NCBI GenBank assembly: GCA_026387235.1
Contig: JAPLMD010000069.1
Span: forward strand, 26,920 to 90,919
Direction: 5' to 3'
Origin: Candidatus Omnitrophota bacterium
Lineage (GTDB): Bacteria; Omnitrophota; Gorgyraeia; Gorgyraeales; Gorgyraeaceae
DNA length: 64,000 nucleotides
Part shown: positions 3,793-53,872 of the stretch, one piece after another
Numbering within the stretch: position 1 is the stretch's first letter
Layout of the letters: each line of letters starts with the position of its first letter
Made by a program: the position numbers and the translations under genes
The notes under the pieces: model-generated
The model's input: only the letters and a program-made list of their open reading frames with translations
Told to the model about the DNA's origin: nothing
Databases searched by the model: none

Positions 3793-3793
3793 A

Positions 3794-9789: not shown

Positions 9790-9794
9790 ATGAG

Positions 9795-9837
9795 GCCATG
9801 ACTTATGGAGTCCGCAGGACGACATAAGTCATATGGC
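9795..9837. repeat. Inverted repeat/hairpin between lptB and tig
   Basis: GCCATGACTTATG (9795-9807) / CATAAGTCATATGGC (9823-9837): 13-bp stem with a 2-nt bulge and 15-nt loop. No clear T-tract. Confidence 0.4.
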
Positions 9838-9963
9838 TGAATTTATCCCTCGCAGCACGATGAAAAATCTATAGCTGCTCGGGATTAATTCGCACTTCAT
9901 GTAAAAACAGAAAGGAGATTGTTTTACAAAAATCATAGATTTTCGTAAAACAAGTGCTCATTA

Positions 9964-33200: not shown

Positions 33201-36166
33201 CAGAGCAGCAGGTGACTGATTTTATAAGTCAGGCTAGCTCCTTAAAAGAAGCCTATTGTCAAAAATTTAGTATAGCTTCCGAAGCTTATGAAGGCCAAGT
33301 AAATGCTTATCAAGAAAAGGCTGCTAAGGAAGGCATAGTTGAGACAGCTTTTCCTGTTCAGGATACTTATCAGAAAACTTTGAAAGCCTTTTTAGAGAAG
33401 GCACTTAAAAAAGATTTAATCAATGCTTTTGCCGCAGATATTAGATCAGCAATGATACAGGATAGTACTGTGCGAGCCAATGTTCTGGAAAGCGCTGAGA
33501 AAGTCACAACATATACTCACTATGACTGGAATAGAATCTGGGAAATGGCTCTGGACATTGACCTGGCAGCCGGCGGTTTAACATGTGTTAACTTTGGCCC
33601 GATCTGGTCTGATGTTGGTACAATTAAAGAAGCCAAGAGGCTGGCAGATTACGAGGTTTCAAAGGATAATCTTTTAGAGAGGGCTTTATATAGAGGTCTG
33701 TTTGAGCTGCCTATTACCCATGATAAAATATACAATGTTGATTCTAATAAGGGTAAGATTGTATATTCTAGCCCAAACGAATTCTTGCGTTATCGCAGTG
33801 TTATTGATGTTCCAGAAGGCGTAACTTTAATAATAGGAAATAGAGTAAGGATTGCTAATAGTTTTATTCAAATAATAGCCAAAAAAGGGGAAACAGTAAT
33901 AATACCTGATGATACTGCAATAGTAGCTAGTTATTTGCGCTGTTCAATAGGAAAGGAAGGCAAGCCAGGGTCATTTGTGTATAGACACGAGCAGAGAAGA
34001 GGTACTTTAGAATTTTCAGGAGATTTCATTACAACGATCCGGACCATTGAAGGGCCAGTGAGAGGAACCCATCCCATAGATGCAACTACTATTGCATGGA
34101 ACGACGTTCCAGTGGCAGGAACTTATACTCCCAGGATGTTGACTAGGCCATTTCCGGGTATGCCTGGACCCTTGCGAGACAAGCCTAAAGTTACTTCTGT
34201 TGTTGTTAGGGAAAAAACATATAGTTTTTATAGAAGTCGTCTCGATCGCATTATAACTACGATTTGGGAGAGAGCACAGTCACAAGAGGTCAGATTTATC
34301 CCTGAAAAGGCCATTGGAAAAATTATAGACATGGTTCAGAATGATAGAGCAAAAAGTGAAGGCAGAGGCTATATTTCAAGTTTCCTTTTTATAGGAGGCA
34401 ATGTCGGAGGTTTAGAGCCTCAAGTTTATACTCAGACATTAGAGAGATTAAGTAAGCATTATTTATATTATACTACTCCAGAAAGAAGGATTGGAGAAGA
34501 AGGGGTTTTCGGAAGGCGAGGCATGTCAGGTTTACAACATTCGTTAAGATCAATGCAACTGAATGATAAATATACTACTGAATTTCTGAATAGAGCCAAA
34601 GACCTGATTAAAGAAAGAAACATGAGAGGGCTTAAAGCATGGATAGAAGAAGCTAAACAGATAGATCCAGAAGAAGCAGGGATTAAGACTTTACGTTGTG
34701 CATTGGACTATTTAAGTAAAGAAGGGAGCCAGGTTGTACTTTACAGGATAGTTAGCAGGGCAGAAATAATAAAAGAGTATATTAGAGGCGAACATGGCGA
34801 AGAATTGGATATAGCTGACGCAGAACGAAAAGCCCGTGATTTATTAAGTGGGAAAGATCCTTATAAAGTTGATGAGCAGGATTTCTTAAGATTAATAGTA
34901 AGAGGGGAGACAGATCCAAATGACGCACATTCAGGCAGCCTGTCACATGACTTGCTTAGACACTATGAAGAAGGAGGTATTTTAAAAGGAGCTCTTGTAG
35001 AGAACGTTGCTAAATATAATATACCCAAAAAGGCCTTAATTAGTATTATGTGCGTCTTTCGCTGCCCTAGCAGGTCGGAGCTATTCTCTGATTTAGCTCA
35101 GCTGCCTCAAGAAGATATAGGCCTTTTAGAAAGTAAACTTGAGGATGCGATGTTTACGCATGACGAGATGTTATCAAGAAAGGTGAAAGAACTCCTTCAT
35201 AAGCATGGTAAGCCAATTACTGTAACCATAGATGGCTTAGCCATGACAGGCAAGAGCACGATGAGTAAAGATATAAGCAATGTCTTAGGATTTACACGTA
35301 TACCTGGAGGAGAGATAAGCAGGCTGATAACAGCTGGCCTGCTTGGAACAGGTATAAACCGTAATACTATAGAATCTACAGAGCCTGATACGATAGTTGC
35401 TGCAGTGCAGCAAACCTTGGAGGACGTGAAATATAAATTAATAGGCGGCGCTGTAACATTGTGCTATAAAGACACAGATTTGCTTAATAATCAAGATCTT
35501 TTAAGTCAACTCCGCAGCCAAGATATCAATGACAATATATCTTCACTTGTTATGAACAGTAACATTGTCAGAAATCTGCTTATAATGCATATCATGGAAT
35601 TGATAAAACAAGTCCATGATCTTGGTTTCAGCGTGGTGATAGATGGAAGATTAGCTGGAACTGAAATAGAACGGCAAGCAGATGTAAAGATTTGTTTGGA
35701 CACAAGCTATGAAGCCATGGCCAGAGCAGATGCCCGTAGAATTATTGACCAAAAAGGTAGTATGACTGCTTACATAGAGAGAACCGGCAATACTATGGCA
35801 GAGTATAGGCAAATTATAAGAAGTGGAGGGTTGCCAGGTGTGGAAAGAGCGATAATGCAGACTTATTATCAGCCAGCAGAAGAAAGAGATGCGAGTGATG
35901 TTTTAGATGTGGCTGAGTATCTATCCAGCAGAGAACAAGATGATGAGATTACTGTTATTTCATCAAGGGGCGTAGAAGATAGATTATCTATTAAGGATGT
36001 AAGAGAAACGATATTTGCAGAGATTATTAAAAAAATTAGCAATGCAGAAGATGCTGTAACTGTACTGAATTTAAGAGAGGGAACCCAGCCAGGAGTACCT
36101 TCAGATGCTGGTGTGTATCTCGAAACAGCTGTTCAAGGACTTAGAACCACAGGTCAAGGCCTATAA
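27296..36166 (+). CDS. Giant secreted multidomain protein (2956 aa). Signal peptide, paralogous N-domain, class-I SAM amino-methyltransferase domain, possible NTP-transferase-like stretch, shared C-module, cytidylate-kinase-like P-loop domain.
   Basis: Sec-type signal peptide MSVKPLSRAISITVLITFLFTNIPYASSA|P. N-domain (~27383-29020) ~80-85% identical to the gene 3 N-domain. MTase motif I DLTCGTG (31063-31083) and motif IV FTPPF (31268-31282). LAVNGGAGARN…FIVIPCDNM (32215-32430) weakly nucleotidyltransferase-like. Cmk-like ITVTIDGLAMTGKST (P-loop) and VVIDGRLAGTE…KICLDTSYEAMARADARR (35213-35745). Confidence 0.85.
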   Translation: MSVKPLSRAISITVLITFLFTNIPYASSAPNSLFKNKKIDYQKLSDQNQDIVQKKKDILSGEDSKQTQSQQKQAQKILSSHLSDISQIHIPSEIGRIVEVHQGTGAPEHQDKLIVHIQDLHTNPEAEYNLAKILEVLLNDYKMGLVCSEGADGVVDTSSVSTFPDSQVREKISKIFVNAGELTGEEYLSITKYPDLPIWGIESKDIYFRNIIDFNKIMKFNPGSQIFISQAKKALEELKARIYTKELIELDQKEADYKAQKIESPEYVKYLLDSAASQPRSKNILSNYKNIGLLTETIDAEKKIDQLKIMNESQKLLLNLQSSLNAKSLNSDMDSLMAKSSLFKDQKISPFSFYSYLKDLANKHLKDEFGAKYPNLNGFVDYLTKLNSLDSTKLFIELEDLNFEIKQALSRTDEQKTLIKALRNISFLEGFFNLKVSNEELDYYLNNKDFHKVAFFESFLKPAIKKYNISTFIDYNPDLIDSHLTELEDFYKVVKDRDIAMVNNSISEIEKRNSKVSALIAGGFHTKGITKLLKEKGYSYIVISPYSKTGINEENYHYLLSGQRKPLMELAEKLNAAALRVILGFVKDPTFETELKKTLAAAGIIDNQLYSGAKPRMLSLFALGAAKTLYLRDKANFDLSALPAYFTSSFYTELNKLGLDVEIRESKSGIHVKCGDNYFGINKEDGGIIKSNASIFTSVSDKNRVMLAKISEEETLKIPGPRISEGITQAVAEKWKARADMVPDSQIKVMRIKDLEIETVLITADSGDMPEGILAWRLRDSKNRLVIITEREVKLGDSFSEELLFHEQFEENLKQELNYITDRDPERLRHTRHAIASAVESILFSEGGTRLTPFHEYAIGHRMSLLHLKRLVDEYQELGFYYNMIADFFTRKGIEYQDKGITIEALQAYERKFIARIKEEIRHRTTESRARAGARRKGKAAEVPKMYLVGKVVVPQDDARTQQVIEQARGQERLVRIDVSKQERITPQGRFADILRDAISYYERRGASDEVADLQQTEFYLVRPQEDDPNRTLPGFIWYDSDGHYLIAKAMEPRQAYFGYEAIDILREKNPRIDFIANMLLQVARYAKDPYGKWDPSILNHILAESGNYLLEDARLIKEVRFIINRLFKEETSPEENDRLQGLLIDIKQRKPVLFYVGLANLGRTYLQGISPNRYPCVTAANLCLARNYAFMDQHLQKDAYVSEIDRTITVFRDVFNPTLTRAIPWMLQVLKEQQNPANPNLVKGEILIKKGDNFLDLTCGTGIFGLFAALNGAESVLSSDINPSAVACANFNAKKLGVAKKMQAIQSDLFNGIPKDRKFNIISFTPPFLDEPQSPGVWLEKAVYDPGFSLLTRFLNRVGNYLTDDGKILFIGTDKSQGPEGKNSTGLMLDLARRKGFISTIIRSQEFHGETYSVYELTRRSALVSDSEIDNLVATSLSSDKESANFAIRELIEQARSAFDSNPEFYQRLFLHLVQIYIEESYNGYVSERVIAKRNAGERPDFYEEQKAATYNASAARTINWFIKDYCRDVLKLDPEGQIVEDYFSCLHMLPIMNRDMKRRFSERDGIEIDSTMIVNGNPEEVQMTKDFYRARLGRIYDSLKVIGIRDDLWLGNIVGMMPLFEDYLAQPSRDQEAKGNKKVILHVLAVNGGAGARNILLTASSDGKGEIILDNGRTMMEQGIEQVKGMVQGLVERNIYGEFFIVIPCDNMILPAMYTADAYRSDRGFYLYARKTEVLRASLNELKHWGPPFGQMFAKRETGIVKGFEEKPNIWKLLNRVMINAIEESNEETCGKSISEFLYNLDTRRNRYLDDLKQKSGDYALYLIALPMIVQEEVWNYVYENGEVEPEIRKIIPTFDEWKRLYSEANKHKSRVEGLINKVLDEGGTVSFTNTFYFLLSRPVAEKIYTLFSQPTEREDSGSFWARKLPKGQTPKMVAALDWAGLILTPMTVTQETWMEDYEKRGAMYLAEQQVTDFISQASSLKEAYCQKFSIASEAYEGQVNAYQEKAAKEGIVETAFPVQDTYQKTLKAFLEKALKKDLINAFAADIRSAMIQDSTVRANVLESAEKVTTYTHYDWNRIWEMALDIDLAAGGLTCVNFGPIWSDVGTIKEAKRLADYEVSKDNLLERALYRGLFELPITHDKIYNVDSNKGKIVYSSPNEFLRYRSVIDVPEGVTLIIGNRVRIANSFIQIIAKKGETVIIPDDTAIVASYLRCSIGKEGKPGSFVYRHEQRRGTLEFSGDFITTIRTIEGPVRGTHPIDATTIAWNDVPVAGTYTPRMLTRPFPGMPGPLRDKPKVTSVVVREKTYSFYRSRLDRIITTIWERAQSQEVRFIPEKAIGKIIDMVQNDRAKSEGRGYISSFLFIGGNVGGLEPQVYTQTLERLSKHYLYYTTPERRIGEEGVFGRRGMSGLQHSLRSMQLNDKYTTEFLNRAKDLIKERNMRGLKAWIEEAKQIDPEEAGIKTLRCALDYLSKEGSQVVLYRIVSRAEIIKEYIRGEHGEELDIADAERKARDLLSGKDPYKVDEQDFLRLIVRGETDPNDAHSGSLSHDLLRHYEEGGILKGALVENVAKYNIPKKALISIMCVFRCPSRSELFSDLAQLPQEDIGLLESKLEDAMFTHDEMLSRKVKELLHKHGKPITVTIDGLAMTGKSTMSKDISNVLGFTRIPGGEISRLITAGLLGTGINRNTIESTEPDTIVAAVQQTLEDVKYKLIGGAVTLCYKDTDLLNNQDLLSQLRSQDINDNISSLVMNSNIVRNLLIMHIMELIKQVHDLGFSVVIDGRLAGTEIERQADVKICLDTSYEAMARADARRIIDQKGSMTAYIERTGNTMAEYRQIIRSGGLPGVERAIMQTYYQPAEERDASDVLDVAEYLSSREQDDEITVISSRGVEDRLSIKDVRETIFAEIIKKISNAEDAVTVLNLREGTQPGVPSDAGVYLETAVQGLRTTGQGL

Positions 36167-38166: not shown

Positions 38167-38195
38167 TTGACAAGAAAACGGTTACATGGTATACT
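38167..38195 (+). promoter_or_regulatory. Duplicated sigma70-like promoter TTGACA-17-TATACT upstream of gene 3
   Basis: ttttttatttgacaagaaaacggttacatggtatacttttatatag is near-identical to tttttatttgacacgaaagcgtttacgtgttatactttatagtag upstream of gene 1. Confidence 0.6.
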
Positions 38196-38240
38196 TTTAT
38201 ATAGATTTTAAAAGTATTTATATAAAAAGGAGAATAAGAT

Positions 38241-41200
38241 ATGACTTTTAATACTATGAAGAAGGTTGCTTCTATAGTTACATTTATTAGTTTTATAGCC
38301 ACTAATAGCATATATGCCGCGCCTGAGTCAAAGTCTGTATTCAAGAACAAGAAGGTGGACTATCAGAAGATTAATGACCAGAATAATGGCGTTATTCAGA
38401 GGAAAAAGGCCATTCTTAACGGAGAAGACGCAAACCAGGTTGAGTCCCAGCAAAAAGAGGCTCAGAAGATACTCTCATCCCATCTTTCTGATATATCACT
38501 TATCCATATTCCTGCAGAGTTGGGAAGAATTACCGAAGTCTACCAGAACCCAGATGCTGAAAACTCCAGGCTAATTGTCCATATCCAGGATCTTCATACG
38601 AACCCTGAGGCAGAGTATAACCTTGCCAAGATACTTGAGCTTTTATTGAATGATTATAAAATGGGCCTGGTGTGCTCAGAAGGTGCTGATGGCGCAGTGG
38701 ATACTTCAAGTATTTCAAGTTTCCCGGATTATGCAACAAGGGAAAAGGTCTCAAAGATATTTGTCAATGCAGGCGAGCTTACAGGAGAGGAATACCTCTC
38801 AATAACAAAATACCCTGCTCTACCTATCTGGGGAATTGAAAATAAGGAAATATATTTCAAAAATATAATTGATTTTAATAAGATAATGAAATTTAATCCC
38901 CAGTCACAGGTTTTTATATCACAGGCAAAAAAGGCGCTTGAAGAACTTAAAAACAAGCTTTATACAAAAGAGCTTTTGGAATTAGACCAGAAGGGATTAG
39001 ATTATAAGGCGCAGAAACTTGAGTCAGCAGATTATATAACATACCTTACAGGATATGTCCAAAAACTTAATATCCCAACGCTCAAATATGAGAATGTTTC
39101 GCTATTGAATGAAACTATTGATATGGAGAAAAGAATAGGCCAGCTGAAGATAATGAACGAATTGCAGAATCTATTACTGAATCTGCAGGCGGCGTTTTTA
39201 TCCAAATCCATGAAAGGAGAATCTGATTCTTTAAACGCCAACGCCCAGCTTTTCAAAGACCAGAAGATATCGCCGTTTTCATTTTATAGTTACCTGAAAG
39301 ACCTTGCGAATAAGCACCTTAAAGACGAATTTTCTGCAAAATATACAGCTATAAATAGCTTTGTAACCTACCTCACAAAAGTAAATTCATTAGATTCCAC
39401 AAAGCTATTCATAGAATTGGAAGACCTTAATTTTGAAATAAAAGAAGCGCTCTGTAGAACAGAGGAACAAAAAACGCTTGTGAAGGCGCTCCGCAATATA
39501 GATTTCCTTGAAGGGTTTTTTAATCTGAAGGTCTCAAATGAAGAATTAGATTATTATCTTGAAAATAAAGAATCCCATAAGGTGGCGTGGTTCAAATCTG
39601 CAATAACGGGCATAACAGGCAAAATAGGCCTAACGGGCCAAACGAACTACATAGATTATAATTCGGCTTTAATAGACCCGCATCTAACTGAACTTGAAGA
39701 ATTTTACAAGGTTGTAAAAGAGCGCGATGTGGCAATGGTGGATAATTCATTGTTTGAGATTGAGAAACGCAGATCAAAGGTAAGTGCATTAATAGCAGGC
39801 GGATTCCATACAAAAGGCATAACAAGGCTTTTAAAGGATAAGGGGTATTCTTATATAGTAGTATCTCCGTATTCAAAGACAGATATGGATGAGCAAAATT
39901 ACCATTTCTTATTGTCAGGAAAAAGAAAACCCCTTGTAGAATTATTGAAACAATTAGATTTAGGTGGAATTGTAAAAAGATACATCACTTCTACCGGCCT
40001 TCGAGTAAATATGGGTTGTGATACAGATATGGATGCGGCTTTTGGACGTCAAGTAATTCCTGAACTTGCAAAAATATGGGATTTTGAACCAGAGGATTTG
40101 CATCGATGGAATTTACCTCCAAGAGTGGTAGCTTGTTTAGTATTTCAAAGCGCAGCAGCAGGAAGAACTGACTTTAAAGGATGGCCGTCAATAGTTGGGT
40201 TAGAGCTAAATGATATAGGTGTGTTAAAGCTTACTTCTCGTGAAGGGTATATTTACTATGTTGAAGTTACCGCTGATAATAAAGTAAAAGAAGCAAAGCC
40301 AGATGCTTTTAATAATGGCACAGTAGTTGTAAATATACCATCAGCAGGCACAGGGCAAATAATCGCAAAGGAGCTACAAAAGGTAGATTTAAGTGCTGTA
40401 GAACCGGAAGCAGCCGTAGGTTCTCTTTTTAACCTTTTGGATTTACTTATACGCTTACGTGATGGTCAGGGAATCACAGAAATTTCAACTGGGAAATTAA
40501 AAACGGAGCGCACTGCAGTTGGTGTCAGAATGGTTGACAGAGAAATAAACGCAGGCCGTTTGCTCGGCATATTAGAGGACAAAGAAACATCAAGGGGAGT
40601 TGTTAAATTCACAGAGCCATTTAAAGATATTACCCGTGCAGAATTAGTAGAAATAAATACAGAAATAGCAAAAATCCTGCCTAAAGGTTTAGGCAGAGGG
40701 ACATTAGATCAGTTAGATCAAGTTAAACTAGAGCAAGTAAGAAAGATAGTAGAAACTTTTAAAAAAGTGGACGGATTACGAACACAACAGGGTAGAGAAG
40801 CGGAGTTTTTGGTTCAAAATGTGCAGAAGTTGTCAAGAGTTGATGGAGGTATAGTTGCAGGTATTGGATTACAGGATATTCATGGCCGGGTGTTTAAGCT
40901 AAATGGCCAGTTTTTTAACGATGATGGTAGCTATACCGAGGAGTTGCAGAAGTTTATGGATACTCTCTCTGATAATTCGGTCCAAGAGATGATACATGCA
41001 GGGATTATGTATTATGATATTCGCTCTAAATACTGGAAAGATAACCCTGCATTTACAGTGGCATTTGCATTTGCCTTTGCAAAGAAGTTGCAGGAAATAG
41101 AGGGCAGGCAAGATGGTATAGTGCTTCATATAGGCGTCGATGCATATCATAAGCATTTTGAAACAGCTCAGGTTTTTGCTGATGCAATATTGAGGACAGG

Positions 41201-42854
41201 GATATGCGATAATGGAGGAGGTATTTATTACTGGGGCGTTATAAATGGCGGTGATACGCGAAATTATGGTCAGCTTTATCATGCAATGAATAATGGAAAA
41301 GGCGGAAACTGGGTTTATTTTACCATGAGCCATGTTCGCGATGATTTTATAGGAGCTAAGTTAGGCAGAGGCGCTAAAGTATACTGCGGATCTGAAATTC
41401 GGCATTGCGAAGACGTAACAAGCGGCACATTATATGATGCTATAGTTGAAAAAGATTTTACTCCAGTAAAACGTAATATTCCTGTTGGGAATATTGTAAC
41501 TGTGAGTAATGTTATAAAAAATAATATTGAGGTTGCAGCAGATATGATAAGAGCAACTTCTGATAGCAGTGATATACCAACAAATGAGTTATTGAAAAGT
41601 GAAAAAGCAAAATTTTATGTTCTTATGGGTGGCAGTCCAATGGCTAAGAATCTAGTGGATATGCTCAAGGCTCTTGGTGCTGATATAGAGGTTGAAAGTG
41701 GAAGCGTGGATAAGAATTTTAATACAGCCAATATTATAGACCCTAATGAGCTTAATAATCCTAATGCGCATCCGCTTCAAGTTGCTATAAATAAAAGATT
41801 GAGAGAGATAGCGAAAGAGACAGGCAGGACGGTTTTAGTAGTAGACCCTGATGCTGATAGAGGATCGATTGTTGCTATAAATGAAGAAGGAGAAGCAATA
41901 GCTTTATCAGGTTCGAAGTTATTACTTCTGGCTATGGAACCACTGGCGCGCAGTTATAAAGCTAAAGGACTTCCTCCTCCTACTGTAATTTGCGACATGA
42001 GAACAGGGGTAAGCGCTAAAGATTTAGCAAAGGTGCTTAATGAAAGAGGATTTCCAATCAAGGTTGTTCCACATGAGGCTGGTTATCCATTTTTTATGAG
42101 AGGAATGGCGAGCTTGCCAGCTGATCTGGCTGTAGAAAATACTACGCATGCATTTATGAACCCTATGACAAACCCGAAATGGGGCGCGCCAGAAGAATAT
42201 AGAATGCCAAATGGTGAGGGTTATCAAGGTGGTGATAATGCCGCTCTTTTCCTTATTTATTTGGCAGGCTGTATGGTCCATCAGTGGGAAGGTAGAACCC
42301 CTGCCCAGCAATTAGAATGGCTTGAACAAGAATATGGCATTAAAAAGACTATAGATGATGAACGGAAACCCAAGATGCCAGTGAAGGATGATAAGTACAA
42401 ATATATTATTGCAGGTAGAATGAAAATGTTGGCTAAACAATATTGTACTGATAAAACTAGGTTTTTAATTAATTTCGATGATCCTAAGGTTAGTTTGGTA
42501 AGCGGTGTCCATCTGACAAATGTTAAAACAGGCGCCATGGTTTTAGTAAGATTTTCTAATACAGGTTCAACTTTTACGATTTCTGGTGAAGCCTACTATA
42601 GAAAAGATTTAGGCGAAGGGCGTGAGAGAGAAGATTTGAATGAAATGTTGGGCTTGGGGTATTGGATTATGATTACCGCAGTGAATCAATTGCACGCCGA
42701 GGGCAATGTTTTTGATTTTGATCCCAAGGATGCTGCTGAATTGGAAAATCAACCAATTGTAGCTGAGATGAATCAAATGCTTACAGACACTCAACACGAA
42801 GGTTTGCAGCCTGCTATTACAAAGATATCTAGAGACATAGGTTCAGGTATATGA
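38241..42854 (+). CDS. Giant secreted protein (1537 aa): signal peptide, N-domain, unknown middle region, C-terminal alpha-D-phosphohexomutase (phosphoglucomutase)-like domain
   Basis: Signal peptide MTFNTMKKVASIVTFISFIATNSIYAA|P. Phosphohexomutase signatures: active-site-Ser-like YFTMSHVRDD (~41321), metal loop VDPDADRGSIV (41844-41861), phosphate-binding loop RFSNTGSTFTISGEAYY (42548-42600), comparable to RLSGTGSxGATIRLY of PGM. Confidence 0.8.
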   Translation: MTFNTMKKVASIVTFISFIATNSIYAAPESKSVFKNKKVDYQKINDQNNGVIQRKKAILNGEDANQVESQQKEAQKILSSHLSDISLIHIPAELGRITEVYQNPDAENSRLIVHIQDLHTNPEAEYNLAKILELLLNDYKMGLVCSEGADGAVDTSSISSFPDYATREKVSKIFVNAGELTGEEYLSITKYPALPIWGIENKEIYFKNIIDFNKIMKFNPQSQVFISQAKKALEELKNKLYTKELLELDQKGLDYKAQKLESADYITYLTGYVQKLNIPTLKYENVSLLNETIDMEKRIGQLKIMNELQNLLLNLQAAFLSKSMKGESDSLNANAQLFKDQKISPFSFYSYLKDLANKHLKDEFSAKYTAINSFVTYLTKVNSLDSTKLFIELEDLNFEIKEALCRTEEQKTLVKALRNIDFLEGFFNLKVSNEELDYYLENKESHKVAWFKSAITGITGKIGLTGQTNYIDYNSALIDPHLTELEEFYKVVKERDVAMVDNSLFEIEKRRSKVSALIAGGFHTKGITRLLKDKGYSYIVVSPYSKTDMDEQNYHFLLSGKRKPLVELLKQLDLGGIVKRYITSTGLRVNMGCDTDMDAAFGRQVIPELAKIWDFEPEDLHRWNLPPRVVACLVFQSAAAGRTDFKGWPSIVGLELNDIGVLKLTSREGYIYYVEVTADNKVKEAKPDAFNNGTVVVNIPSAGTGQIIAKELQKVDLSAVEPEAAVGSLFNLLDLLIRLRDGQGITEISTGKLKTERTAVGVRMVDREINAGRLLGILEDKETSRGVVKFTEPFKDITRAELVEINTEIAKILPKGLGRGTLDQLDQVKLEQVRKIVETFKKVDGLRTQQGREAEFLVQNVQKLSRVDGGIVAGIGLQDIHGRVFKLNGQFFNDDGSYTEELQKFMDTLSDNSVQEMIHAGIMYYDIRSKYWKDNPAFTVAFAFAFAKKLQEIEGRQDGIVLHIGVDAYHKHFETAQVFADAILRTGICDNGGGIYYWGVINGGDTRNYGQLYHAMNNGKGGNWVYFTMSHVRDDFIGAKLGRGAKVYCGSEIRHCEDVTSGTLYDAIVEKDFTPVKRNIPVGNIVTVSNVIKNNIEVAADMIRATSDSSDIPTNELLKSEKAKFYVLMGGSPMAKNLVDMLKALGADIEVESGSVDKNFNTANIIDPNELNNPNAHPLQVAINKRLREIAKETGRTVLVVDPDADRGSIVAINEEGEAIALSGSKLLLLAMEPLARSYKAKGLPPPTVICDMRTGVSAKDLAKVLNERGFPIKVVPHEAGYPFFMRGMASLPADLAVENTTHAFMNPMTNPKWGAPEEYRMPNGEGYQGGDNAALFLIYLAGCMVHQWEGRTPAQQLEWLEQEYGIKKTIDDERKPKMPVKDDKYKYIIAGRMKMLAKQYCTDKTRFLINFDDPKVSLVSGVHLTNVKTGAMVLVRFSNTGSTFTISGEAYYRKDLGEGREREDLNEMLGLGYWIMITAVNQLHAEGNVFDFDPKDAAELENQPIVAEMNQMLTDTQHEGLQPAITKISRDIGSGI

Positions 42855-45800
42855 ATTTATTCATAATGAGGAAGAATATGCCGCATAGCTACTTTAAAAA
42901 AACCCTATCTTTTTTTACCCTGATTGCTTTTATTTTTACAAATGCTAGCTATGCTGCCCCTGATTATAATAGCTTATTTAAAAATAAAGCAGCGCTCAGG
43001 GTGCCGCTTAATTCTGATAAGCTTAGGGATGAATTTTTAGAAGTTGCTTCAGCCAAAGGTACAGGAGTTGCGCATCGTGGCTCTAATAGCATAAATGAAG
43101 CAATAAGATTAGCATATGACGCAAGGAACAAAGACAAAGAAACATTTTTTGTAATTCAAGAAAATGGAAAACCAGTCAGAGGAATCAGCAGATATCACGC
43201 TGCTATTTTACCTGCAACTTTCAAAGCTATAGACAGCCTGGATGCATCAGCAGTAAAACTAATATTAACAAGACTAGAGAGAAACATTTCTGAAATCTTA
43301 GGCCTTAGAATCCGACTATCAACAATAGGCAAAGATCAAATTAAAGATACGATAGAATCAGCTTTGACAGTTTTAATAAAAGACCCAAATGATCCTGATA
43401 ATCCTCTTATTATTGCGAAGAGCCTTAATGAATATAATGCTGGACATAATAGCCCTAAAAGAAAAAGTATATATTTACCAAGAAGGTTTATAGATGGCCT
43501 GATAAAAGAGGGAGAGATGAGTATCGTAGCAGCAGCTGAAGGCCATGAAGGTTTTCAGCTTGCCGTTGCACTTGCTTTGGGTAATAAATATGATGAAAGA
43601 AATGAAGTCTTATTGGATGCAATTAATAACGCAGCTGAAGAGTTTGAGTGTTTAATAGCAGGAAAAAGCAGATTAGGATTAAATAGCAGGCTGGACGACC
43701 AGATATTGGCCTCAATAGCATGTACTACAAGAGGCGCACAAAAACTTCAATTTGCAAATTCGCTATCTCAAAAGGTTACTCCTGAGCATGGGCTTAGTGA
43801 AGAAGATTTGGCTGAAGTGAAAGATGCATTGGAAGAGGTCCACGCCTCTATTCAATCAGATGACAGCCTTAATGGGTTATATAAAAGCCCGTCAAGTTAT
43901 GTGGAAAGACAAAAAGATATAGCCCGGATGAGCGCGCTAGCAGAAGAATGGAAAGATAAGTATAATGATATTTTGATTATAGGCGGAGAAGATAGCGGTA
44001 CCCATATGGCATTTACAGCGCTTACTGAAGAAAACCGGAACAACCTTTCTAAAGCAGAAAGAAAAGGATTTCCTAGGATACATTTCGTGGACATGGATAA
44101 GGTAGTTGAAATTGCACACCGCATAGATTTAAAAAAGGCTGGAATTTTAGTAATAGGTAATAATATAAGCAATGCTAATGCTGCAACATGCAGGTATTTA
44201 CAAGAAATATATGGTAAAGAAGGTATAGCATCCAGACTTGCTATTGTAGGTGACTCAGGAAAGACATTAGGGGAAACAGTGCCTTCTGAGAAACAGTTTT
44301 CATTACCCGAAGGCTTAGGCAACATGGATTCTTTTTTTAGCGCCGCAGGATTACTGCCTATTGTTTTGGCAGGTAAAGTTAGGGAGGCTCAGGATATATT
44401 GACAGGAGCTGAATCTGCTGCTGAGGATATAGCAGGAATAGATTTAACTGCTCCAACAACAGGAATTCCAGCCATATTCATGTATCCTGAATATATGCAT
44501 CCTGGAATTATTGCAGCGCTATATGAAAAAAAGGCAAAAGATGTGAGCATCTATTGTCCTTTTTCAGAAAAATTGAGGTTATTTGGTGTATGGACTGCAA
44601 ATCAGTTTAATTTAGTTATAAGCGGAAGAAAAGGTAATAGTTTAGTTTTTCAAGGCGCAGTAGGCACAAGGCATAATCATGCCAGTTTACAAAACTGGCA
44701 AAAAGGCCATAATATGTTTCAAGTAATTACACTTGGGGTGAATGAATTTAATAGCAATCTGGCTGCCGGAAGGTCCAGTTACAATCTATTTAGAAATATG
44801 TCATTTGCTGACCTTATGAATTTTGCAATGGAAGGCACAGAACAGGCTTTAGCAGATGGGAAAAGGCCAAATTTAGGCTATAGAATTAAGAAAGTAGATG
44901 GAGTTAATTTAGGAGGATTGATTTATACAACGCTTTATCAAAAACTCGTTCTTTCTAGATTGCTAGATAAAATGGATAAAGGAGAAAGGGCGCAAACAAC
45001 AGTTGCTAGTTTAGAAAAAGAGACAGAAAATGCTGTTGCGAGCAAGGTTGTTTCTGCAGAGGGCAAGCCTAGTGTTATAAGAGATGCTTCTGGCCTTAGC
45101 CTTGATTATTCAGGTGCTCTTGGAAAAGATGGAGTAACTACGGAAGAGATGCCTGAGGTTGTTGCAGATTTGGTAGATATACAGATGGAAGTGGCAAAAG
45201 AAAGACTTGCAGGTAAACATGATTATCTTAATCTTCCTGAGCGCATGATAAAGGAAATCCAATCAGATAATTTTAGAGGTATAATGAAGGACTTCAGGGA
45301 GTTTGAGGATGTCCTTGTAATAGGCATAGGAGGTTCTAGCGTAGGTGCAAAGATGTGCTTGCAAGCACTTTCTGTGCCTGGTGATAGAAAAATTCCAAAT
45401 GTTTATTTTCTTGAAAGCGTGGATCCGGATTATATAGAAGAAATAACCAAGAATATTGATTTTACAAAAACAGGAATAATTGTAATCAGCAAAACCGGAG
45501 AAACAATGGAATCCAATACAGTCTTCGCAGCTGTAAAAGAAATGATGCAGCAGAGTTTTAGCAGTATTGGCCAGCCTGCGGATTACAAAAAGAATATATT
45601 AGCCATTACAGATCCTGATCATGGCTTATTGAAAAAGGAGGCAAAGAGAGAAGGGTATCGCACCTTAGATGTACCTCCTTTAGTAGAGGGCAGATTCACA
45701 GTGCTTTCCGCAGTGGGTATTGCAGTCATAGGGCTTAAGCTTACAGATAATGAATTATTAGAATTGTTAGAAGGTGCTAGAGATTATGTAAATACAACAG

Positions 45801-48571
45801 AGCTTAGTTCAGATAAACTAAAGAAGTTCGTAAAATTAGATACAAAAAAGAAAAAGACTGCAGAAGAATCAGCAGAATTGCAAAGATTAGGAAATGAGTT
45901 AAAAGAAGAGGCAAAACAAAAAGTATATAATTCAATAGGTTATATGTATGGAGGCCTAAGAAGCCAATTAAATCTTAAAAAGCAAAAAAGCCTGTCTTTT
46001 GTTGCCCCTTTTTCTTATAGGCTGTCAGGATTTCTGGACTGGGTTATTCAATTATGGAATGAAAGCTATGGCAAGCCAGGTGTAAAAGAATATACTACTG
46101 GAGCAGTAGGGCTTGATCCTGAAGCAGTTGTTTATGACAAAGATTCAGAAGTTGTAACCTTAGTTAACATAGAAGACACTCAGGCTCCAGGATTGGATTC
46201 TACGCGTTCAGGCTACTATAGAGCATCTGATTCATTATTAAGAAAAAATAACAAACCTGTTTTTTCATTGTCACTTCCTTTGCTTGATGGTGAAAATCCC
46301 CGGTCATTTGGCGCATTTATTATTGCTTTGCAACAAGCAGTTATGGTGCAGTCCAAGTCCAAATTATTCACAAAACCAATAATATATGATAACCAGCCTG
46401 GCGTAGAGCTTGCAAAGCGTTCTGCAAGGAGGATGATAGAGCAGAAAAGAGGGCTTGTGGGTGTGGATGTTATTCCTCATGAGCTTACTGAAATAGGTTC
46501 AGCAATTGGAAGTCTTGGTATGTCTGCAAGCGATACCATTAGATATGAGGACTTTAATAGCCCTGAAGAACGAGAAAGGGCTTTAGCAAAATTAATAAAA
46601 AGTACTTTAACTCAAAGAAGTGAAGAAGCTTCTATAGGCAGCATCTGGATGAAAGGAGAAGAAAAACCTGTTTCAGTGAATCCGAATGGGAAATATACAA
46701 TTCTCATAAATCCCTTGGACGCATCTTCTAATATTGAGAAAAATAACGGGAGTGTCACTGCATTATTTGCTGTATATGATGGAAGTCAGTTCGCAAAAGA
46801 TAATCTCATAGCTACATTTATGGTTGTTTATGGCCCGGCAACTGGTTTAGTGGCAAGGGTCAAGGTAGGAGATGAGTTCTGTGTATATGATTTTATACTT
46901 GATGAAAAGATTAAGAGTTTTGTTCAGAGGCAGAGAGGGGGCAGGGAAACCAGTCTTATTGAGATGAATTATAAAGGCGACGAACTTGCTATATGGGGCA
47001 AGGTAAAAGATTGGCCACCAGCGCTTAATGATTTTTATTACAAGGAGATATATAGAAGCGGTAAAAAAGTCAGGATAAGCGAATCTGCAGCAGATTTATA
47101 CGAGATGATTTTAAAAGGAGGGATTATTGCTGCGCCGATTACACAATGTGATGCAGTAATGTGGGGCTCTATTATTGAATCAGCTGGAGGAAGGTCTTTA
47201 ATAATGACTGAAGATGGCCCAATATCCTGCACTGAATTAAAATTAGGCAAAGATTCTTTTAATCCTGAGAAACAAATCTGGGCTTATTTTGGGAATAAGG
47301 ACGTAATGGAAAGAATGGAGCAAAGTCTAAGGGGGGGCGAAAATTTAAATCCTGATGAGCGTAAAGAGTTTTATAAAAGCAATATGATTGTAAGAGGCCC
47401 ACCTAAGAGTATAGATACAACAAGAGAAAATGCTGATGGAAAGAGCTTAGAGAGTGTATTGAGTGATGAGATAGGGGAAGACACCGAAATAGTAAGAATA
47501 GTAGGCCATGTTGCACGTGTAGCAACAACTACAGTAACGCCAATGTTTTCAGTAATAGGGGTGGAAGAAGGGTTAGGTGAAATTAATCTTGCAGGAGATG
47601 AGCAGGTAGGAGGAGATACATTCACTAATAGGACATTCAGGAACAGGCTTTTGAATCCTGGTAATGATCAGGAGTTGGAAAGGCGTTTAACTGCAGCAGA
47701 AGAAACAGGAGAGCGCTTGGTAGCAAGTGACTTTAACGGTATATCATGGGTAAGCGCTTTTTATTCAGAAGAAGAAGATATGAGATATCCTGGAAATGAT
47801 AATGCTAAATACCTGGTTAGCTTTGATCCATTAGATGGTTCAAGTAAAGTAGATACATTTGGAGGCGTGTCTACAATTCTGACTATTTGGGATAAAGGTG
47901 AGTCAAATGATATTATAGGCAAAATAGGCCATAGAGATGTAAGAGGAGTATGTTTTGTCCTTTACGGTCCGCAGACAATGCTTGTATATGCCTCAGCTAA
48001 GTCAGATAAGGTATTTCTGTTTAAAGTAGACAAAGATGGAAGCGTTAGCAGGGTTGGAATGTTAAAGCCATTGCCAGAAAGGACAGAGAAAGGTTTGAGG
48101 CTAGCAATTGGAGGAGAAAGGCCTGATATGGTGCCTAAAGGTAAGTCTGAAATAGATGATCTTGAGAGCCTGATAACAACATTAGAAAGAGAACATGAAG
48201 GAAAGGCTGGTTACAGTGGTTCAATGAACGTTGATATTGCTGGAATTTTATTTGGAATGGACTCAGAAGCTGATGGAGGCATGTATGCATATCCTGGCAC
48301 AGTTAGGAGGCCCGAAGGCCGCTTAAGGCTTGATAGTGAACTTGTAGCTATGAGTTTTATAACAGAGAAGTTAGGCGGCAGCAGTACAAATGGCAGAAAG
48401 AATATACTTGATATACCTGTCGGAAAATTGCACCAGCACGAGCCATTCTTTGTTGGGTCAAAAATTTTGATAGATAAAGTAGAAAAGGTGTTCGGGAATC
48501 AAGCTAATGCAGCTACTATGCTGCCAGAAGCATTGCCTCTTGGCACAGCAGCAGTTGGGACAAATTTATAA
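42851..48571 (+). CDS. Giant secreted protein (1906 aa): signal peptide, unknown region, phosphoglucose-isomerase (SIS)-like domain, two tandem class-I fructose-1,6-bisphosphatase domains
   Basis: Signal peptide …TLSFFTLIAFIFTNASYAA|P followed by SLFKNK. PGI-like VLVIGIGGSSVGAKM (45309-45360) and IVISKTGETMESNT (45481-45520). FBPase copy 1, degenerate: NPLDASSNIE (~46700). FBPase copy 2: SEEEDMRYPGNDNAKYLVSFDPLDGSS (47764-47850), GGMYAYPGTVRRPEGRLRLDSELVAMSFITEKLGG, LHQHEPFFVGSK…VEKVF. This is near-colinear with E. coli Fbp …SEEEDE…DPLDGSSNID…GGIYLYP…GKLRLLYE…LHQRRSFFVGN…VERFI. The 4-nt ATGA overlap with gene 3 implies an operon. Confidence 0.85.
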   Translation: MNLFIMRKNMPHSYFKKTLSFFTLIAFIFTNASYAAPDYNSLFKNKAALRVPLNSDKLRDEFLEVASAKGTGVAHRGSNSINEAIRLAYDARNKDKETFFVIQENGKPVRGISRYHAAILPATFKAIDSLDASAVKLILTRLERNISEILGLRIRLSTIGKDQIKDTIESALTVLIKDPNDPDNPLIIAKSLNEYNAGHNSPKRKSIYLPRRFIDGLIKEGEMSIVAAAEGHEGFQLAVALALGNKYDERNEVLLDAINNAAEEFECLIAGKSRLGLNSRLDDQILASIACTTRGAQKLQFANSLSQKVTPEHGLSEEDLAEVKDALEEVHASIQSDDSLNGLYKSPSSYVERQKDIARMSALAEEWKDKYNDILIIGGEDSGTHMAFTALTEENRNNLSKAERKGFPRIHFVDMDKVVEIAHRIDLKKAGILVIGNNISNANAATCRYLQEIYGKEGIASRLAIVGDSGKTLGETVPSEKQFSLPEGLGNMDSFFSAAGLLPIVLAGKVREAQDILTGAESAAEDIAGIDLTAPTTGIPAIFMYPEYMHPGIIAALYEKKAKDVSIYCPFSEKLRLFGVWTANQFNLVISGRKGNSLVFQGAVGTRHNHASLQNWQKGHNMFQVITLGVNEFNSNLAAGRSSYNLFRNMSFADLMNFAMEGTEQALADGKRPNLGYRIKKVDGVNLGGLIYTTLYQKLVLSRLLDKMDKGERAQTTVASLEKETENAVASKVVSAEGKPSVIRDASGLSLDYSGALGKDGVTTEEMPEVVADLVDIQMEVAKERLAGKHDYLNLPERMIKEIQSDNFRGIMKDFREFEDVLVIGIGGSSVGAKMCLQALSVPGDRKIPNVYFLESVDPDYIEEITKNIDFTKTGIIVISKTGETMESNTVFAAVKEMMQQSFSSIGQPADYKKNILAITDPDHGLLKKEAKREGYRTLDVPPLVEGRFTVLSAVGIAVIGLKLTDNELLELLEGARDYVNTTELSSDKLKKFVKLDTKKKKTAEESAELQRLGNELKEEAKQKVYNSIGYMYGGLRSQLNLKKQKSLSFVAPFSYRLSGFLDWVIQLWNESYGKPGVKEYTTGAVGLDPEAVVYDKDSEVVTLVNIEDTQAPGLDSTRSGYYRASDSLLRKNNKPVFSLSLPLLDGENPRSFGAFIIALQQAVMVQSKSKLFTKPIIYDNQPGVELAKRSARRMIEQKRGLVGVDVIPHELTEIGSAIGSLGMSASDTIRYEDFNSPEERERALAKLIKSTLTQRSEEASIGSIWMKGEEKPVSVNPNGKYTILINPLDASSNIEKNNGSVTALFAVYDGSQFAKDNLIATFMVVYGPATGLVARVKVGDEFCVYDFILDEKIKSFVQRQRGGRETSLIEMNYKGDELAIWGKVKDWPPALNDFYYKEIYRSGKKVRISESAADLYEMILKGGIIAAPITQCDAVMWGSIIESAGGRSLIMTEDGPISCTELKLGKDSFNPEKQIWAYFGNKDVMERMEQSLRGGENLNPDERKEFYKSNMIVRGPPKSIDTTRENADGKSLESVLSDEIGEDTEIVRIVGHVARVATTTVTPMFSVIGVEEGLGEINLAGDEQVGGDTFTNRTFRNRLLNPGNDQELERRLTAAEETGERLVASDFNGISWVSAFYSEEEDMRYPGNDNAKYLVSFDPLDGSSKVDTFGGVSTILTIWDKGESNDIIGKIGHRDVRGVCFVLYGPQTMLVYASAKSDKVFLFKVDKDGSVSRVGMLKPLPERTEKGLRLAIGGERPDMVPKGKSEIDDLESLITTLEREHEGKAGYSGSMNVDIAGILFGMDSEADGGMYAYPGTVRRPEGRLRLDSELVAMSFITEKLGGSSTNGRKNILDIPVGKLHQHEPFFVGSKILIDKVEKVFGNQANAATMLPEALPLGTAAVGTNL

Positions 48572-53340: not shown

Positions 53341-53407
53341 ATATCTACTCTTATGAAAGGGGGTAGGTTAGTTGAAGTGGGTGCAGTATGCCCGCTTTTT
53401 TTGTTTT

Positions 53408-53857: not shown

Positions 53858-53872
53858 TAACGGGGGAAAGAA

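Follow-up and report, generated by a model that had tools for sequence, protein, structure and literature searches.

Organization of g3 and its surroundings

The 64,000-nucleotide stretch of Omnitrophota DNA analyzed here (the window) contains an island of leader-bearing multi-enzyme genes, flanked by proS and nusA, in which g3 is located. The ORF list and the junction sequence place its coding sequence at 38241–42854 (1,537 aa) on the + strand, which also carries every other feature described below. The stop of g3 overlaps the start of g4 by 4 nt (ATGA, 42851–42854), and the two genes are probably translationally coupled; g4 encodes phosphoglucose isomerase (PGI) and fructose-1,6-bisphosphatase (FBPase) domains. 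A Shine–Dalgarno-like AAAGGAG (38226–38232), read directly from the sequence, lies 8 nt 5′ of the ATG, and a candidate sigma-70-like promoter, TTGACA-17-TATACT with an extended −10 TG (38167–38195), lies 46 nt 5′ of the g3 start. This promoter is the top match between 36100 and 43100 (11 of 12 positions), as a consensus match only, in an interval where promoter-like matches are, in total, no more numerous than in shuffled sequence.

Four segments make up the g3 product. A signal-peptide-like leader is followed by an N-terminal domain (N-domain) of EreA/ChaN/TraB-like character, then by 279 non-conserved residues and finally by the mutase at the C terminus. The leader, MTFNTMKKVASIVTFISFIATNSIYA (38241–38318), has a positive n-region, a hydrophobic core of ~12 residues and I-Y-A followed by A-P, a sequence that fits a signal peptidase I site; it is the sole hydrophobic segment of the protein (Kyte–Doolittle 1.61). 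The motif that follows it, SKSVFKNKKVDY (38328–38363; family consensus S-[KR]-S-[IL]-F-K-[ND]-K-K-V-D-Y), is kept in most of the closer N-domain homologs and missing in the six most distant (P0075–P0080), and it also occurs on g4, which lacks the N-domain.

The N-domain (aa 82–577; 38484–39971) is common to g1 (70% identity) and g2 (61%). The initial annotation recorded a 560-aa unknown domain here, and we can add that its fold resembles that of EreA/ChaN/TraB proteins, although it has no sequence-level match to the EreA/ChaN/TraB/TIKI-like superfamily and its Foldseek matches to these proteins are not significant. Its invariant residues include Q116, D117, H119 and N121, E147 and G148, and G520, G521, F522 and H523, among which H119, E147 and H523 form a His...Glu...His series in the order expected in that superfamily; one difference is a ~300-residue helical insert that splits the alpha/beta core of the N-domain. 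The middle region (aa 578–856; 39972–40808) is not conserved in related fusion proteins: it is unmatched in L004, L005 and L015, has no match in a Pfam scan and retrieves nothing below E 0.2 in a sequence search of the Protein Data Bank (PDB). Because L004, L005 and L015 also join a leader and the N-domain to the mutase, the architecture of g3 is not an assembly artefact.

A divergent phosphohexomutase domain at the C terminus

The C terminus of g3 is a real, very divergent domain of the sugar-phosphate mutase superfamily, as the initial annotation had proposed from three motifs; fold, profile–profile alignment and family conservation agree on this assignment. The four-domain alpha-D-phosphohexomutase catalytic core, supported by hhalign and Foldseek, spans aa 922–1478 (41004–42674) within a family region, aa 857–1503 (40809–42749), that is 49–64% identical to homologs across its span and begins with a family-specific N-terminal extension (aa 857–921). 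The span first drawn, 41110–42700, starts slightly too late on the 5′ side. A C-terminal tail (aa 1504–1537; 42750–42851) is poorly conserved, with a ragged alignment, and is partly of low confidence (pLDDT <50 at model residues 671–674 and 680–687) in the AlphaFold model of aa 851–1537, which has a pLDDT of 91.9 and a pTM of 0.91. All of the top 50 Foldseek matches of this model in the PDB are phosphohexomutases, the best being 1wqa_A (E 1e-22, TM 0.78).

Direct scans nearly fail to detect this relationship, and the homology is clear only with family profiles and structure. When the four Pfam families named beforehand as a check were scanned, PF02878, PF02880 and PF00408 had no match in g3, and PF02879 alone matched (aa 1115–1214, E 6e-4), scoring 20.7 bits where the cut-off is 29.3 bits; no curated Pfam or NCBIfam threshold was reached for g3, and single-sequence searches of the PDB found nothing. 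Profile–profile alignment by hhalign of 20 homologs with 17 canonical PMM/PGMs, in contrast, gave a probability of 99.9% and an E value of 5e-31, and its 442 aligned columns take in all four domains. A sequence profile search of the PDB returned PMM/PGM chains only, in which the loops for Ser, metal and phosphate were collinear. Against 1.84 billion representatives, the family profile matched, beyond the family itself, mostly proteins of ~450–530 aa (E 1e-10 to 1e-3); all ten of those tested have PGM_PMM Pfam domains, and eight have all four.

The three motifs first noticed occur in the g3 frame in the order described, and in the hhalign alignment each falls on its canonical counterpart. The phosphoserine loop TMSHVRDDFIGAK (41322–41360) includes TMSHVRDD (aa 1028–1035; 41322–41345) and aligns with canonical T-A-S-H-N-P-x-E-Y-N-G-F-K. 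Ser1030 (41328–41330), the predicted phosphorylated nucleophile, is followed by His1031 and Lys1040, and the T, S, H, G and K of the loop do not vary in any of the 20 sequences. This form of the Ser loop is shared beyond g3, the family signature being T-M-S-H-[RVK]-x-[ED]-D. The metal-binding loop VDPDADRG (aa 1201–1208; 41841–41864), with Asp1202, Asp1204, Asp1206 and Arg1207, has an invariant D-P-D-x-D-R aligned to canonical F-D-G-D-G-D-R. Conservation across the family bears out the earlier observation of a retained Ser and metal-loop Asp residues beside a non-canonical Ser loop. The phosphate-binding loop RFSNTGSTFTISGEAYY (aa 1437–1453; 42549–42599), with Arg1437, Ser1439, Asn1440 and Thr1441, has invariant R, S and G, with N in at least 90% of sequences. 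It had been likened to the PGM-type loop (RLSGTGS, as in PGM1); its RFSNTG is instead of the PMM/PGM type, R-A-S-N-T-x-P, and aligns with canonical L-I-R-A-S-N-T-x-P-x-I-x-x-R-x-E-A.

Three further signatures, absent from the initial annotation, also align. YDIR (aa 925–928; 41013–41024; Y, D and R invariant) corresponds to canonical N-terminal YDIRG, and GGDN (aa 1330–1333; 42228–42239; G, G and D invariant) to G-F-D-D-G of domain III, both by hhalign. The sugar-binding loop ENTTH (aa 1299–1303; 42135–42149), with Glu1299, Thr1301 and His1303, aligns with canonical G-E-x-S-G-H; its E and H are invariant, and N and T are present in at least 90% of sequences. Mean column identity across the mutase family is 37%, with the catalytic residues conserved throughout.

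Compared with canonical PMM/PGMs (Pseudomonas aeruginosa AlgC, 1K35/1P5D; Pyrococcus horikoshii PMM/PGM, 1WQA), the g3 mutase has the same four-domain fold (TM 0.78–0.79, normalised to the target; 0.79 for 1k35), Ser-His, D-x-D-x-D-R, Glu/Ser(Thr)/His and R-x-S-N-T loops and YDIR over the 442 collinear columns, but an identity of only 14–19%. It is also longer (~645 versus ~455 residues): ~65 residues extend its N terminus, domain I carries insertions, and a helical extension follows at the C terminus. Two features that nearly all characterised members have, Asn-Pro directly behind Ser-His and the first residue of N-G-x-K, are replaced in the divergent family, which has S-H-[RV]-x for S-H-N-P, x-G-A-K for N-G-F-K, D-P-D-[GA]-D-R for D-G-D-G-D-R and V-E-N-T-x-H for G-E-x-S-G-H; unlike canonical PMM/PGMs, the family lies below Pfam and NCBIfam cut-offs.

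Family context and predicted activity

The clade of the g3 mutase is rare and deeply divergent and is closest to the PMM/PGM subgroup. Only 22 cluster representatives were found among the 1.84 billion, the family having members in Omnitrophota, Elusimicrobia, CPR bacteria and DPANN (a Woesearchaeote), and a literature search found no assayed member. In Omnitrophota and Elusimicrobia, the module lies within large leader-bearing multi-enzyme proteins, repeatedly with PGI, to which it is fused in L015 (PF00342) and in L005, L006 and P0001 (PF06560). L008 holds both a canonical PGM (PF02878, PF02879 and PF02880) and the divergent module in one polypeptide, which hints that the two are non-redundant and possibly differ in specificity.

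The CPR and Woesearchaeote copies stand alone, often between mannose-1-phosphate guanylyltransferase and sugar epimerase genes. In the CPR loci L010, L011 and L012, the mutase gene directly follows the guanylyltransferase gene (TIGR01479, E ~1e-81 to 1e-84) and is in turn closely followed by a sugar epimerase gene, which adjoins it in L010 and L011. A guanylyltransferase gene followed by a mutase gene is the classic manC–manB arrangement, and the stand-alone homologs of Berkelbacteria, Patescibacteria and Saccharibacteria, with a sugar epimerase/dehydratase gene just downstream, resemble ManB (phosphomannomutase) in this respect. g3 differs: in the window no guanylyltransferase gene lies beside it, its probable coupling is to the PGI and FBPase domains of g4, and it has a leader and extra domains.

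We infer that the C-terminal module of g3 is, with good probability, an active PMM/PGM-type mutase, whose substrates are most likely mannose and/or glucose phosphates. By homology, Ser1030 would carry the phosphoryl group, Asp1202, Asp1204 and Asp1206 would hold Mg2+, and Arg1437, Ser1439, Asn1440 and Thr1441 would hold the substrate phosphate, while Glu1299 and Thr1301 would read the sugar 3- and 4-hydroxyls, as Glu and Ser/Thr do for the equatorial 3-/4-hydroxyls of hexoses (PMC7101342). Phosphate would be shuttled between C1 and C6 of the hexose via a 1,6-bisphosphate intermediate. Together, g3 and g4 could link fructose-1,6-bisphosphate, fructose-6-P, hexose-6-P and hexose-1-P.

An active phosphohexomutase fold with a different job (phosphoglucosamine mutase, phosphopentomutase, glucose-1,6-bisphosphate synthase or a mutase acting on some other phosphosugar) is unlikely, but several observations point toward it: S-H-[RV]-x-[ED]-D in place of S-H-N-P and E-N-T-x-H in place of G-E-x-S-G-H could retune specificity, the top structural matches include a phosphopentomutase of Thermococcus kodakarensis (9ix8), and L008 pairs the module with a canonical PGM. 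The Glu and Ser/Thr that read the hexose hydroxyls are nevertheless retained, the top fold and profile matches are bifunctional PMM/PGMs, four fusions join the module to PGIs, and the guanylyltransferase–mutase–epimerase order of three CPR loci is that of manC–manB. Much less probable is a PGM-like module without catalytic activity, comparable to PGM5/aciculin, with a sugar-phosphate binding or scaffolding role in a large surface protein. The loss of the signature Asn-Pro, the failure to reach curated models and the export-type leader, an unusual setting for a mutase, would suit such a module, but the chemistry residues (Ser-His, Lys, three Asp and Arg, Glu/Thr/His, and Arg/Ser/Asn/Thr) are conserved across Omnitrophota, Elusimicrobia, CPR and DPANN at ~40% overall identity, and stand-alone leaderless copies are located in sugar-nucleotide operons. 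The reading that an unrelated domain carries these motifs by chance, as the empty single-sequence PDB searches and the one sub-threshold Pfam match might suggest, is refuted, and has almost no probability left, given the hhalign (5e-31) and Foldseek (1e-22) E values, top 50 matches from one superfamily and six collinear motifs.

Relation to Omnitrophota long proteins and cellular location

The initial annotation regarded the fusion of such a mutase to a leader as unusual, which holds for bacteria generally, but the arrangement recurs in Omnitrophota and Elusimicrobia and is noted in two preprints. These describe 'Archaeovorin'-type giants (West-Roberts et al. 2023, bioRxiv 10.1101/2023.11.21.568195) and a 'multi-enzyme metabolic cluster' class (bioRxiv 10.64898/2026.06.07.730766), and sugar-phosphate enzyme domains in Omnitrophota long proteins are already known from them. 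The long proteins described there come from the phylum of g3, likewise have a signal peptide or transmembrane segment at the N terminus, string together sugar-phosphate domains (PGM/PMM, PGI, FBPase, HAD, ROK and starch synthase) and raise the same outside-versus-inside question. They differ in size, from 10,000 or 30,000 aa upward against just 1,537 for g3, and the counts given are of Pfam-detectable PGM domains (PF02878, PF02879 and PF02880), to which the g3 clade is largely invisible. Term searches of both preprints found neither the EreA/ChaN-like N-domain nor the leader motif.

The g3 leader looks like a cleavable Sec signal, and whether the protein is exported or cytoplasmic is about evenly balanced. 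Fifty related leaders share its design, with a conserved helix breaker, conserved small residues in positions −3 and −1, as in the classic signal peptidase I design, a short core of ~12–15 residues and an N-flank (mean charge +2.7) more positive than the C-flank (+1.6). In addition, g3 has no second hydrophobic segment, and the folds nearest to its N-domain (ChaN, TraB/PrgY-type) belong to mostly extracytoplasmic proteins. The alternative, that the leader does not serve as a cleaved export signal, falls only just short of an even chance. Among siblings that share the leader, g1 has cytidylate kinase and methyltransferase domains and L008 has ROK kinase and PPDK domains, which depend on ATP or SAM, and the mutase homologs that stand alone are leaderless and cytoplasmic. 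Positive charge after the hydrophobic core disfavors Sec export in model bacteria, and the first 15 residues past the core have a net charge of +1.6 on average and +3 in g3. West-Roberts et al. (10.1101/2023.11.21.568195) caution that an extracellular call may reflect mislocalisation, whereas DeepTMHMM called many such proteins signal-peptide-bearing in the 2026 preprint (10.64898/2026.06.07.730766).

Standard annotation overlooks this divergent mutase family. If g3 is truly exported, a location beyond the cytoplasmic membrane would be odd for a mutase requiring a bisphosphate activator.

Identity of the g3 C-terminal domain

The g3 ORF (38241..42854, forward strand) encodes 1,537 residues and follows an AAAGGAG ribosome-binding site (38226–38232) and a candidate sigma-70-like promoter (38167–38195; TTGACA-17-TATACT with a TG), the best consensus match in the region. 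An initial annotation had placed a phosphoglucomutase-like domain at 41110–42700, at the C-terminus of g3, on the strength of three hallmark motifs. All three lie in the g3 frame and in the order claimed: TMSHVRDD (residues 1028–1035, nt 41322–41345), VDPDADRG (residues 1201–1208, nt 41841–41864) and RFSNTGSTFTISGEAYY (residues 1437–1453, nt 42549–42599). Standard domain models respond poorly to this segment. The sole Pfam match in g3 is to PF02879, the domain II family (residues 1115–1214; E = 6e-4; 20.7 bits versus a cut-off of 29.3); the Pfam scan gave no match to PF02878, PF02880 or PF00408, no NCBIfam model matched g3, and a phmmer search of PDB sequences with the C-terminal 637 residues returned no match. 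Two relatives pass the threshold, for PF02879 alone (36.6 bits in L007 and 30.5 bits in L006). The initial annotation had made its assignment depend on significant matches to these four families, and by that measure the outcome is borderline, with a sub-threshold signal for one family and none for the other three.

Family-level comparisons are decisive. A search of 5.8 billion proteins recovered 20 homologues with 31–79% identity, which we aligned with the g3 segment (alignment A1; mean column identity of 37%). The A1 profile matched only phosphomannomutase/phosphoglucomutase (PMM/PGM) chains among PDB sequences, with the serine, metal and phosphate loops forming three collinear aligned pieces. 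Among 1.84 billion cluster representatives, it retrieved 22 proteins at E ≤ 1e-30, which are the family itself, and then, below a wide score gap, approximately 40 proteins with E values of 1e-10 to 1e-3. Pfam identified PGM_PMM domains in all of ten such lower-scoring proteins, eight of which contain all four. We aligned 17 canonical proteins of this kind (A3), and comparison of the A1 and A3 profiles gave a probability of 99.9% (E = 5e-31) over 442 aligned columns, pairing residues 72–628 of the segment with canonical residues 7–452. An AlphaFold model of g3 residues 851–1537 built on A1 (mean pLDDT of 91.9, pTM of 0.91) retrieved exclusively alpha-D-phosphohexomutases as its best 50 Foldseek matches in the PDB, led by Pyrococcus horikoshii PMM/PGM 1wqa (E = 1e-22, TM score of 0.78), T. 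kodakarensis PGM 9du5 and P. aeruginosa PMM/PGM 1k35 (TM score of 0.79). The superfamily fold is a four-domain, 'heart-shaped' assembly of three alpha/beta domains and a C-terminal beta-sheet domain (PMC7101342), and the model and its structural matches assign this fold to the g3 domain. The profile comparison and the Foldseek result thus confirm the proposed domain and rule out that the motifs are chance look-alikes.

Each of the four superfamily domains contributes one active-site loop: a serine loop, a metal loop with three Asp residues, a sugar loop in domain III whose Glu and Ser touch the 3- and 4-hydroxyls, and a phosphate loop with an Arg (PMC7101342). All four are present in g3 and are invariant or nearly so across A1. 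In the profile alignment, the domain I serine loop T1028-M-S1030-H1031...G1038-A-K1040 corresponds to canonical T-A-S-H-N-P-x-E-Y-N-G-F-K, and S1030 is the predicted phosphoserine. All 20 family members share the Thr, Ser and His. The domain II metal loop D1202-P-D1204-A-D1206-R1207 (canonical D-G-D-G-D-R) retains three Asp residues and an Arg that are invariant within the family. The domain III sugar loop E1299-N-T1301-T-H1303 (canonical G-E-x-S-G-H) has invariant Glu and His with a conservative Ser-to-Thr replacement, and R and S of the domain IV phosphate loop R1437-F-S1439-N1440-T1441-G (canonical R-A-S-N-T-x-P) are likewise invariant. Two further segments, Y925-D-I-R928 and G1330-G-D-N, align with canonical Y-D-I-R-G and G-F-D-D.

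The canonical superfamily signature, a PROSITE-type pattern, is S-H-N-P. It is absent from g3, which has S-H-V-R-D-D; its closest relatives have either this sequence or S-H-V-T-N-D, and the A1 consensus, S-H-R-x-E-D, contains neither the Asn nor the Pro, the latter being conserved in at least 90% of the 17 canonical sequences in A3. The retention of the Ser and metal-loop Asp residues alongside replacement of the Asn-Pro, as first read from g3, therefore extends across the family. Clade-wide changes, not restricted to g3, also include loss of the Asn of N-G-x-K, Gly to Pro in the metal loop and Ser to Thr in the sugar loop. The domain spans ~645 residues versus ~455 in characterized enzymes, owing to a conserved N-terminal extension of ~65 residues (857–921), to inserted segments within domain I and to added helical structure at the C-terminus.

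For a tentative subgroup placement, we compared the domain with the features that distinguish PMM/PGMs from PGM1-type, GlmM and AGM1 enzymes: an R-A-S-N-T-type phosphate loop, G-E-x-S-G-H, YDIRG and a length of ~455–465 residues. The g3 loops and YDIR most resemble the PMM/PGM subgroup, and PMM/PGMs are the best profile and fold matches; the phosphate loop, RFSNTG, is of PMM/PGM type, not the PGM1 type (RLSGTGS-like) that was originally suggested. Against this placement stand the length of ~645 residues, identities of 14–19% and a sharp HMM score gap to all canonical members. Conservation of the complete catalytic set favors an active enzyme over a pseudoenzyme. Overall, the g3 domain is probably an active phosphohexomutase of PMM/PGM type, belonging to a rare, annotation-resistant clade; the activity expected of the superfamily is a 1,6-phosphomutase reaction that depends on Mg2+ and a bisphosphate.

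Distribution and fusion partners of the mutase clade

When genomes were scanned, one per species, the divergent mutase turned up at 13 loci: five in Omnitrophota, one each in Elusimicrobia, Berkelbacteria and Patescibacteria, three in Saccharibacteria, one in a metagenome-assembled genome of an unclassified bacterium (L009) and one in a Woesearchaeote. A Shapirobacteria homologue was found among the protein-search matches. The CPR and DPANN copies are stand-alone, leaderless proteins of ~630 residues. Directly upstream of three of the mutase genes (L010, L011 and L012) is a mannose-1-phosphate guanylyltransferase gene (TIGR01479, E = 1e-81 to 1e-84, with the match confined to the guanylyltransferase part), present as two copies in L010, and just downstream is a gene for an SDR sugar epimerase/dehydratase, directly adjacent in L010 and L011. 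L009 has an epimerase gene too, and the upstream ORFs in L013 and L014 appear glycosyltransferase-like by inspection. A guanylyltransferase gene next to a mutase gene is the classic manC–manB arrangement, and this gene order suggests that the mutase acts as a phosphomannomutase or a bifunctional PMM/PGM.

In DPANN, the stand-alone copy lies at 7926–9839 of the Woesearchaeota contig JBLINR010000006.1. Its identity to the Omnitrophota domain, 47%, exceeds that of the Saccharibacteria copies, 39%, which suggests transfer of the mutase between prokaryotic domains among small-celled lineages.

In Omnitrophota and Elusimicrobia, the mutase module is embedded in ORFs of 1,292, 1,874, 1,890, 3,198, >3,121 and >5,254 residues, and every such fusion whose N-terminus lies within its contig begins with a hydrophobic leader. 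The fusion partners include phosphoglucose isomerase (PF00342, L015) and cupin-type glucose-6-phosphate isomerase (PF06560, in L005, L006 and the homologous protein P0001), with a HAD domain also in L006. A single ORF of >5,254 residues, open at both ends of a 15.8-kb locus (L008, Omnitrophota JBAZKC010000008.1), encodes in order an ROK kinase, CofD (weak, sub-threshold), a canonical PGM (PF02878, PF02879 and PF02880), starch synthase (sub-threshold), glycogen phosphorylase, the divergent mutase, a region resembling the neighboring gene g5, and PPDK. On these domain assignments, one polypeptide carries a whole series of steps in glycogen and hexose-phosphate metabolism. The presence of both mutases in one chain is the main hint that they may not be redundant.

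Leader, N-domain and the g1–g6 island

g3 is one of six consecutive forward-strand genes (g1–g6, 27296–53254) flanked by proS (25445–27181) and rimP-like/nusA/infB (53372–57222). g1 (27296–36166; 2,956 residues) contains a methyltransferase (residues 1247–1334) and a cytidylate-kinase-like domain (2643–2821). g2 (586 residues) is 100% identical to 'NTX47_07430 [Candidatus Omnitrophica bacterium]'; the window belongs to a metagenome-assembled Omnitrophota genome. g4 (42851–48571; 1,906 residues), which shares its first 4 nt with the end of g3 (ATGA, 42851–42854), carries the same leader and apparently two phosphoglucose-isomerase-like and two class 1 fructose-1,6-bisphosphatase-like regions. 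g6 (50558–53254; 898 residues) encodes a HAD-type phosphatase with a leader and shares with g1 a block of ~275 residues (g6 594–869, g1 2340–2612; 45% identity). The leaderless g5 (48646–50622; 658 residues) has no match in Pfam, NCBIfam or PDB sequences; it contains a G-I-G-G-Q stretch, which we take to recall the G-I-G-G-S of sugar isomerase (SIS) folds. A g5 homologue in the related, Omnitrophota-like contig L003 is 67% identical, and the g5-like region of L008, 60% identical, lies ~50 residues past the mutase module, a position from which g5 is probably a functional partner of the mutase. L003 has its own island at the same place, from proS to rimP-nusA, with a different fusion mix: a mutase with only a leader, an aldose epimerase, the g5-like protein and a 1,649-residue HAD/CofD protein.

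The first ~577 residues are common to g1, g2 and g3 (61–70% identity). Within them, the N-domain (g3 residues 82–577) is widespread in Omnitrophota, mostly as a stand-alone protein of ~570 residues, and neither Pfam nor the PDB sequences gave a match for it. In its model (pLDDT of 81.8), ~300 residues of helical insert divide an alpha/beta core, and Foldseek returned no significant match; H119, E147 and H523 are invariant, and we tentatively regard it as EreA/ChaN/TraB/TIKI-like. The following region of g3 (578–856) has no Pfam or PDB sequence match and is not conserved in related fusions. Three independent genomes (L004, L005 and L015) have leader, N-domain and mutase arranged in this order. 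This recurrence indicates that the g3 fusion is real and rules out an assembly chimera; the placement behind a leader, initially considered unusual, is typical of Omnitrophota.

The only hydrophobic segment of g3 is at residues 9–27 (Kyte–Doolittle ≥1.6), which excludes a second transmembrane segment that would flip the topology. By manual inspection, the leader reads KK, then VASIVTFISFIA, then TNS-I-Y-A, then A-P. Sec/signal peptidase I substrates are marked by a positive n-region, a hydrophobic core of 7–15 residues, a polar c-region and small residues at −3/−1. Across 50 related leaders, the n-region averages +2.7, the core has 12–15 residues and often a Pro or Gly breaker, and the −3/−1 residues are small (I-Y-A|A, V-Y-S|E, A-Y-S|E). 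Often next to the leader, after the predicted cleavage site, is a strongly conserved basic motif, S-[KR]-S-[IL]-F-K-N-K-K-V-D-Y (g3 nt 38328–38363, g1 residues 31–42, g2 residues 39–50 and g4 residues 40–46). Because g4 has a shortened form, NSLFKNK, although it lacks the N-domain, the leader and motif may be a sorting module in their own right.

Whether this leader exports g3 is finely balanced. Its design resembles a signal of the classical signal peptidase I kind, in line with the initial annotation of a Sec signal, but the start of the mature region carries a net positive charge. Domains that depend on ATP or SAM occur in siblings bearing this leader, and the methyltransferase and cytidylate kinase of g1, which need SAM or ATP, sit awkwardly with export. 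Together with the leaderless homologues, which would act in cytoplasmic sugar-nucleotide pathways, these features argue against simple export. The published work is similarly uncertain: West-Roberts 2023 describes giant proteins as 'predicted to be in an extracellular region', yet allows that a missed transmembrane segment could have misplaced them (bioRxiv 10.1101/2023.11.21.568195). A 2026 survey, which describes a 'multi-enzyme metabolic' class, places PGM Pfam domains in 64–88 of its 916 long proteins and assigns 94% a signal peptide or transmembrane segment (bioRxiv 10.64898/2026.06.07.730766). We give exported and cytoplasmic locations about equal weight. The fuller proposal, that the leader is a true export signal, that part of hexose-phosphate interconversion takes place outside the cytoplasm and that the N-domain is a common processing or docking module, seems to us rather unlikely. 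If it were true, a set of cofactor-light enzymes (the mutase, phosphoglucose isomerase, fructose-bisphosphatase and the HAD phosphatases) would lie outside the cytoplasm of an ultra-small, possibly predatory or epibiotic cell, in the periplasm, at the surface or in the host contact zone, converting sugar phosphates of host origin before the cell takes them up.

Window genes for LptC/LptA, OmpA and a lipid A acyltransferase mark the organism as diderm. Separately, a cluster of four small genes whose products begin like type IV pilins (G-F-T-L-[IT]-E), followed by a PilM–PilN fusion, occupies 2903–6250; West-Roberts 2023 notes that, in Omnitrophota, genes for secretion and pili lie close to giant genes (10.1101/2023.11.21.568195).

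Relation to giant proteins and pathway reconstruction

Omnitrophota giant proteins (the Archaeovorin or multi-enzyme class) are defined by floors of at least 10,000 residues (10.64898/2026.06.07.730766) or at least 30,000 residues (10.1101/2023.11.21.568195), whereas g3 has only 1,537 and its largest neighbor, g1, 2,956. Like the multi-enzyme class, g3 combines an N-terminal leader, the N-domain and the mutase in one polypeptide, and further enzyme domains occur on g1, g4 and g6 and in the relatives L005, L006, L008 and L015. Because Omnitrophota typically place such domains behind a leader in multi-domain proteins, as earlier work has outlined, the g3 mutase is not categorically new. Its small size makes g3 a tractable model for the giant-protein question of whether sugar-phosphate enzymes behind leaders act outside or inside the cell; the more interesting question is whether such an enzyme set really works outside the cytoplasm.

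Most copies of the clade are unnamed or labeled 'hypothetical' and fall below Pfam and NCBIfam thresholds. Pathway reconstructions built on such models may therefore wrongly score the hexose-1-phosphate/hexose-6-phosphate step as missing in Omnitrophota, Elusimicrobia, CPR and DPANN; the 2026 Omnitrophota survey describes hexose entry steps as 'partial' (10.64898/2026.06.07.730766). One rare family is common to ultra-small or host-dependent lineages of both prokaryotic domains, some of which have it as a separate protein and others as part of multi-enzyme proteins with leaders. It can therefore serve as a marker of gene exchange and of the way in which these fusion proteins are put together.
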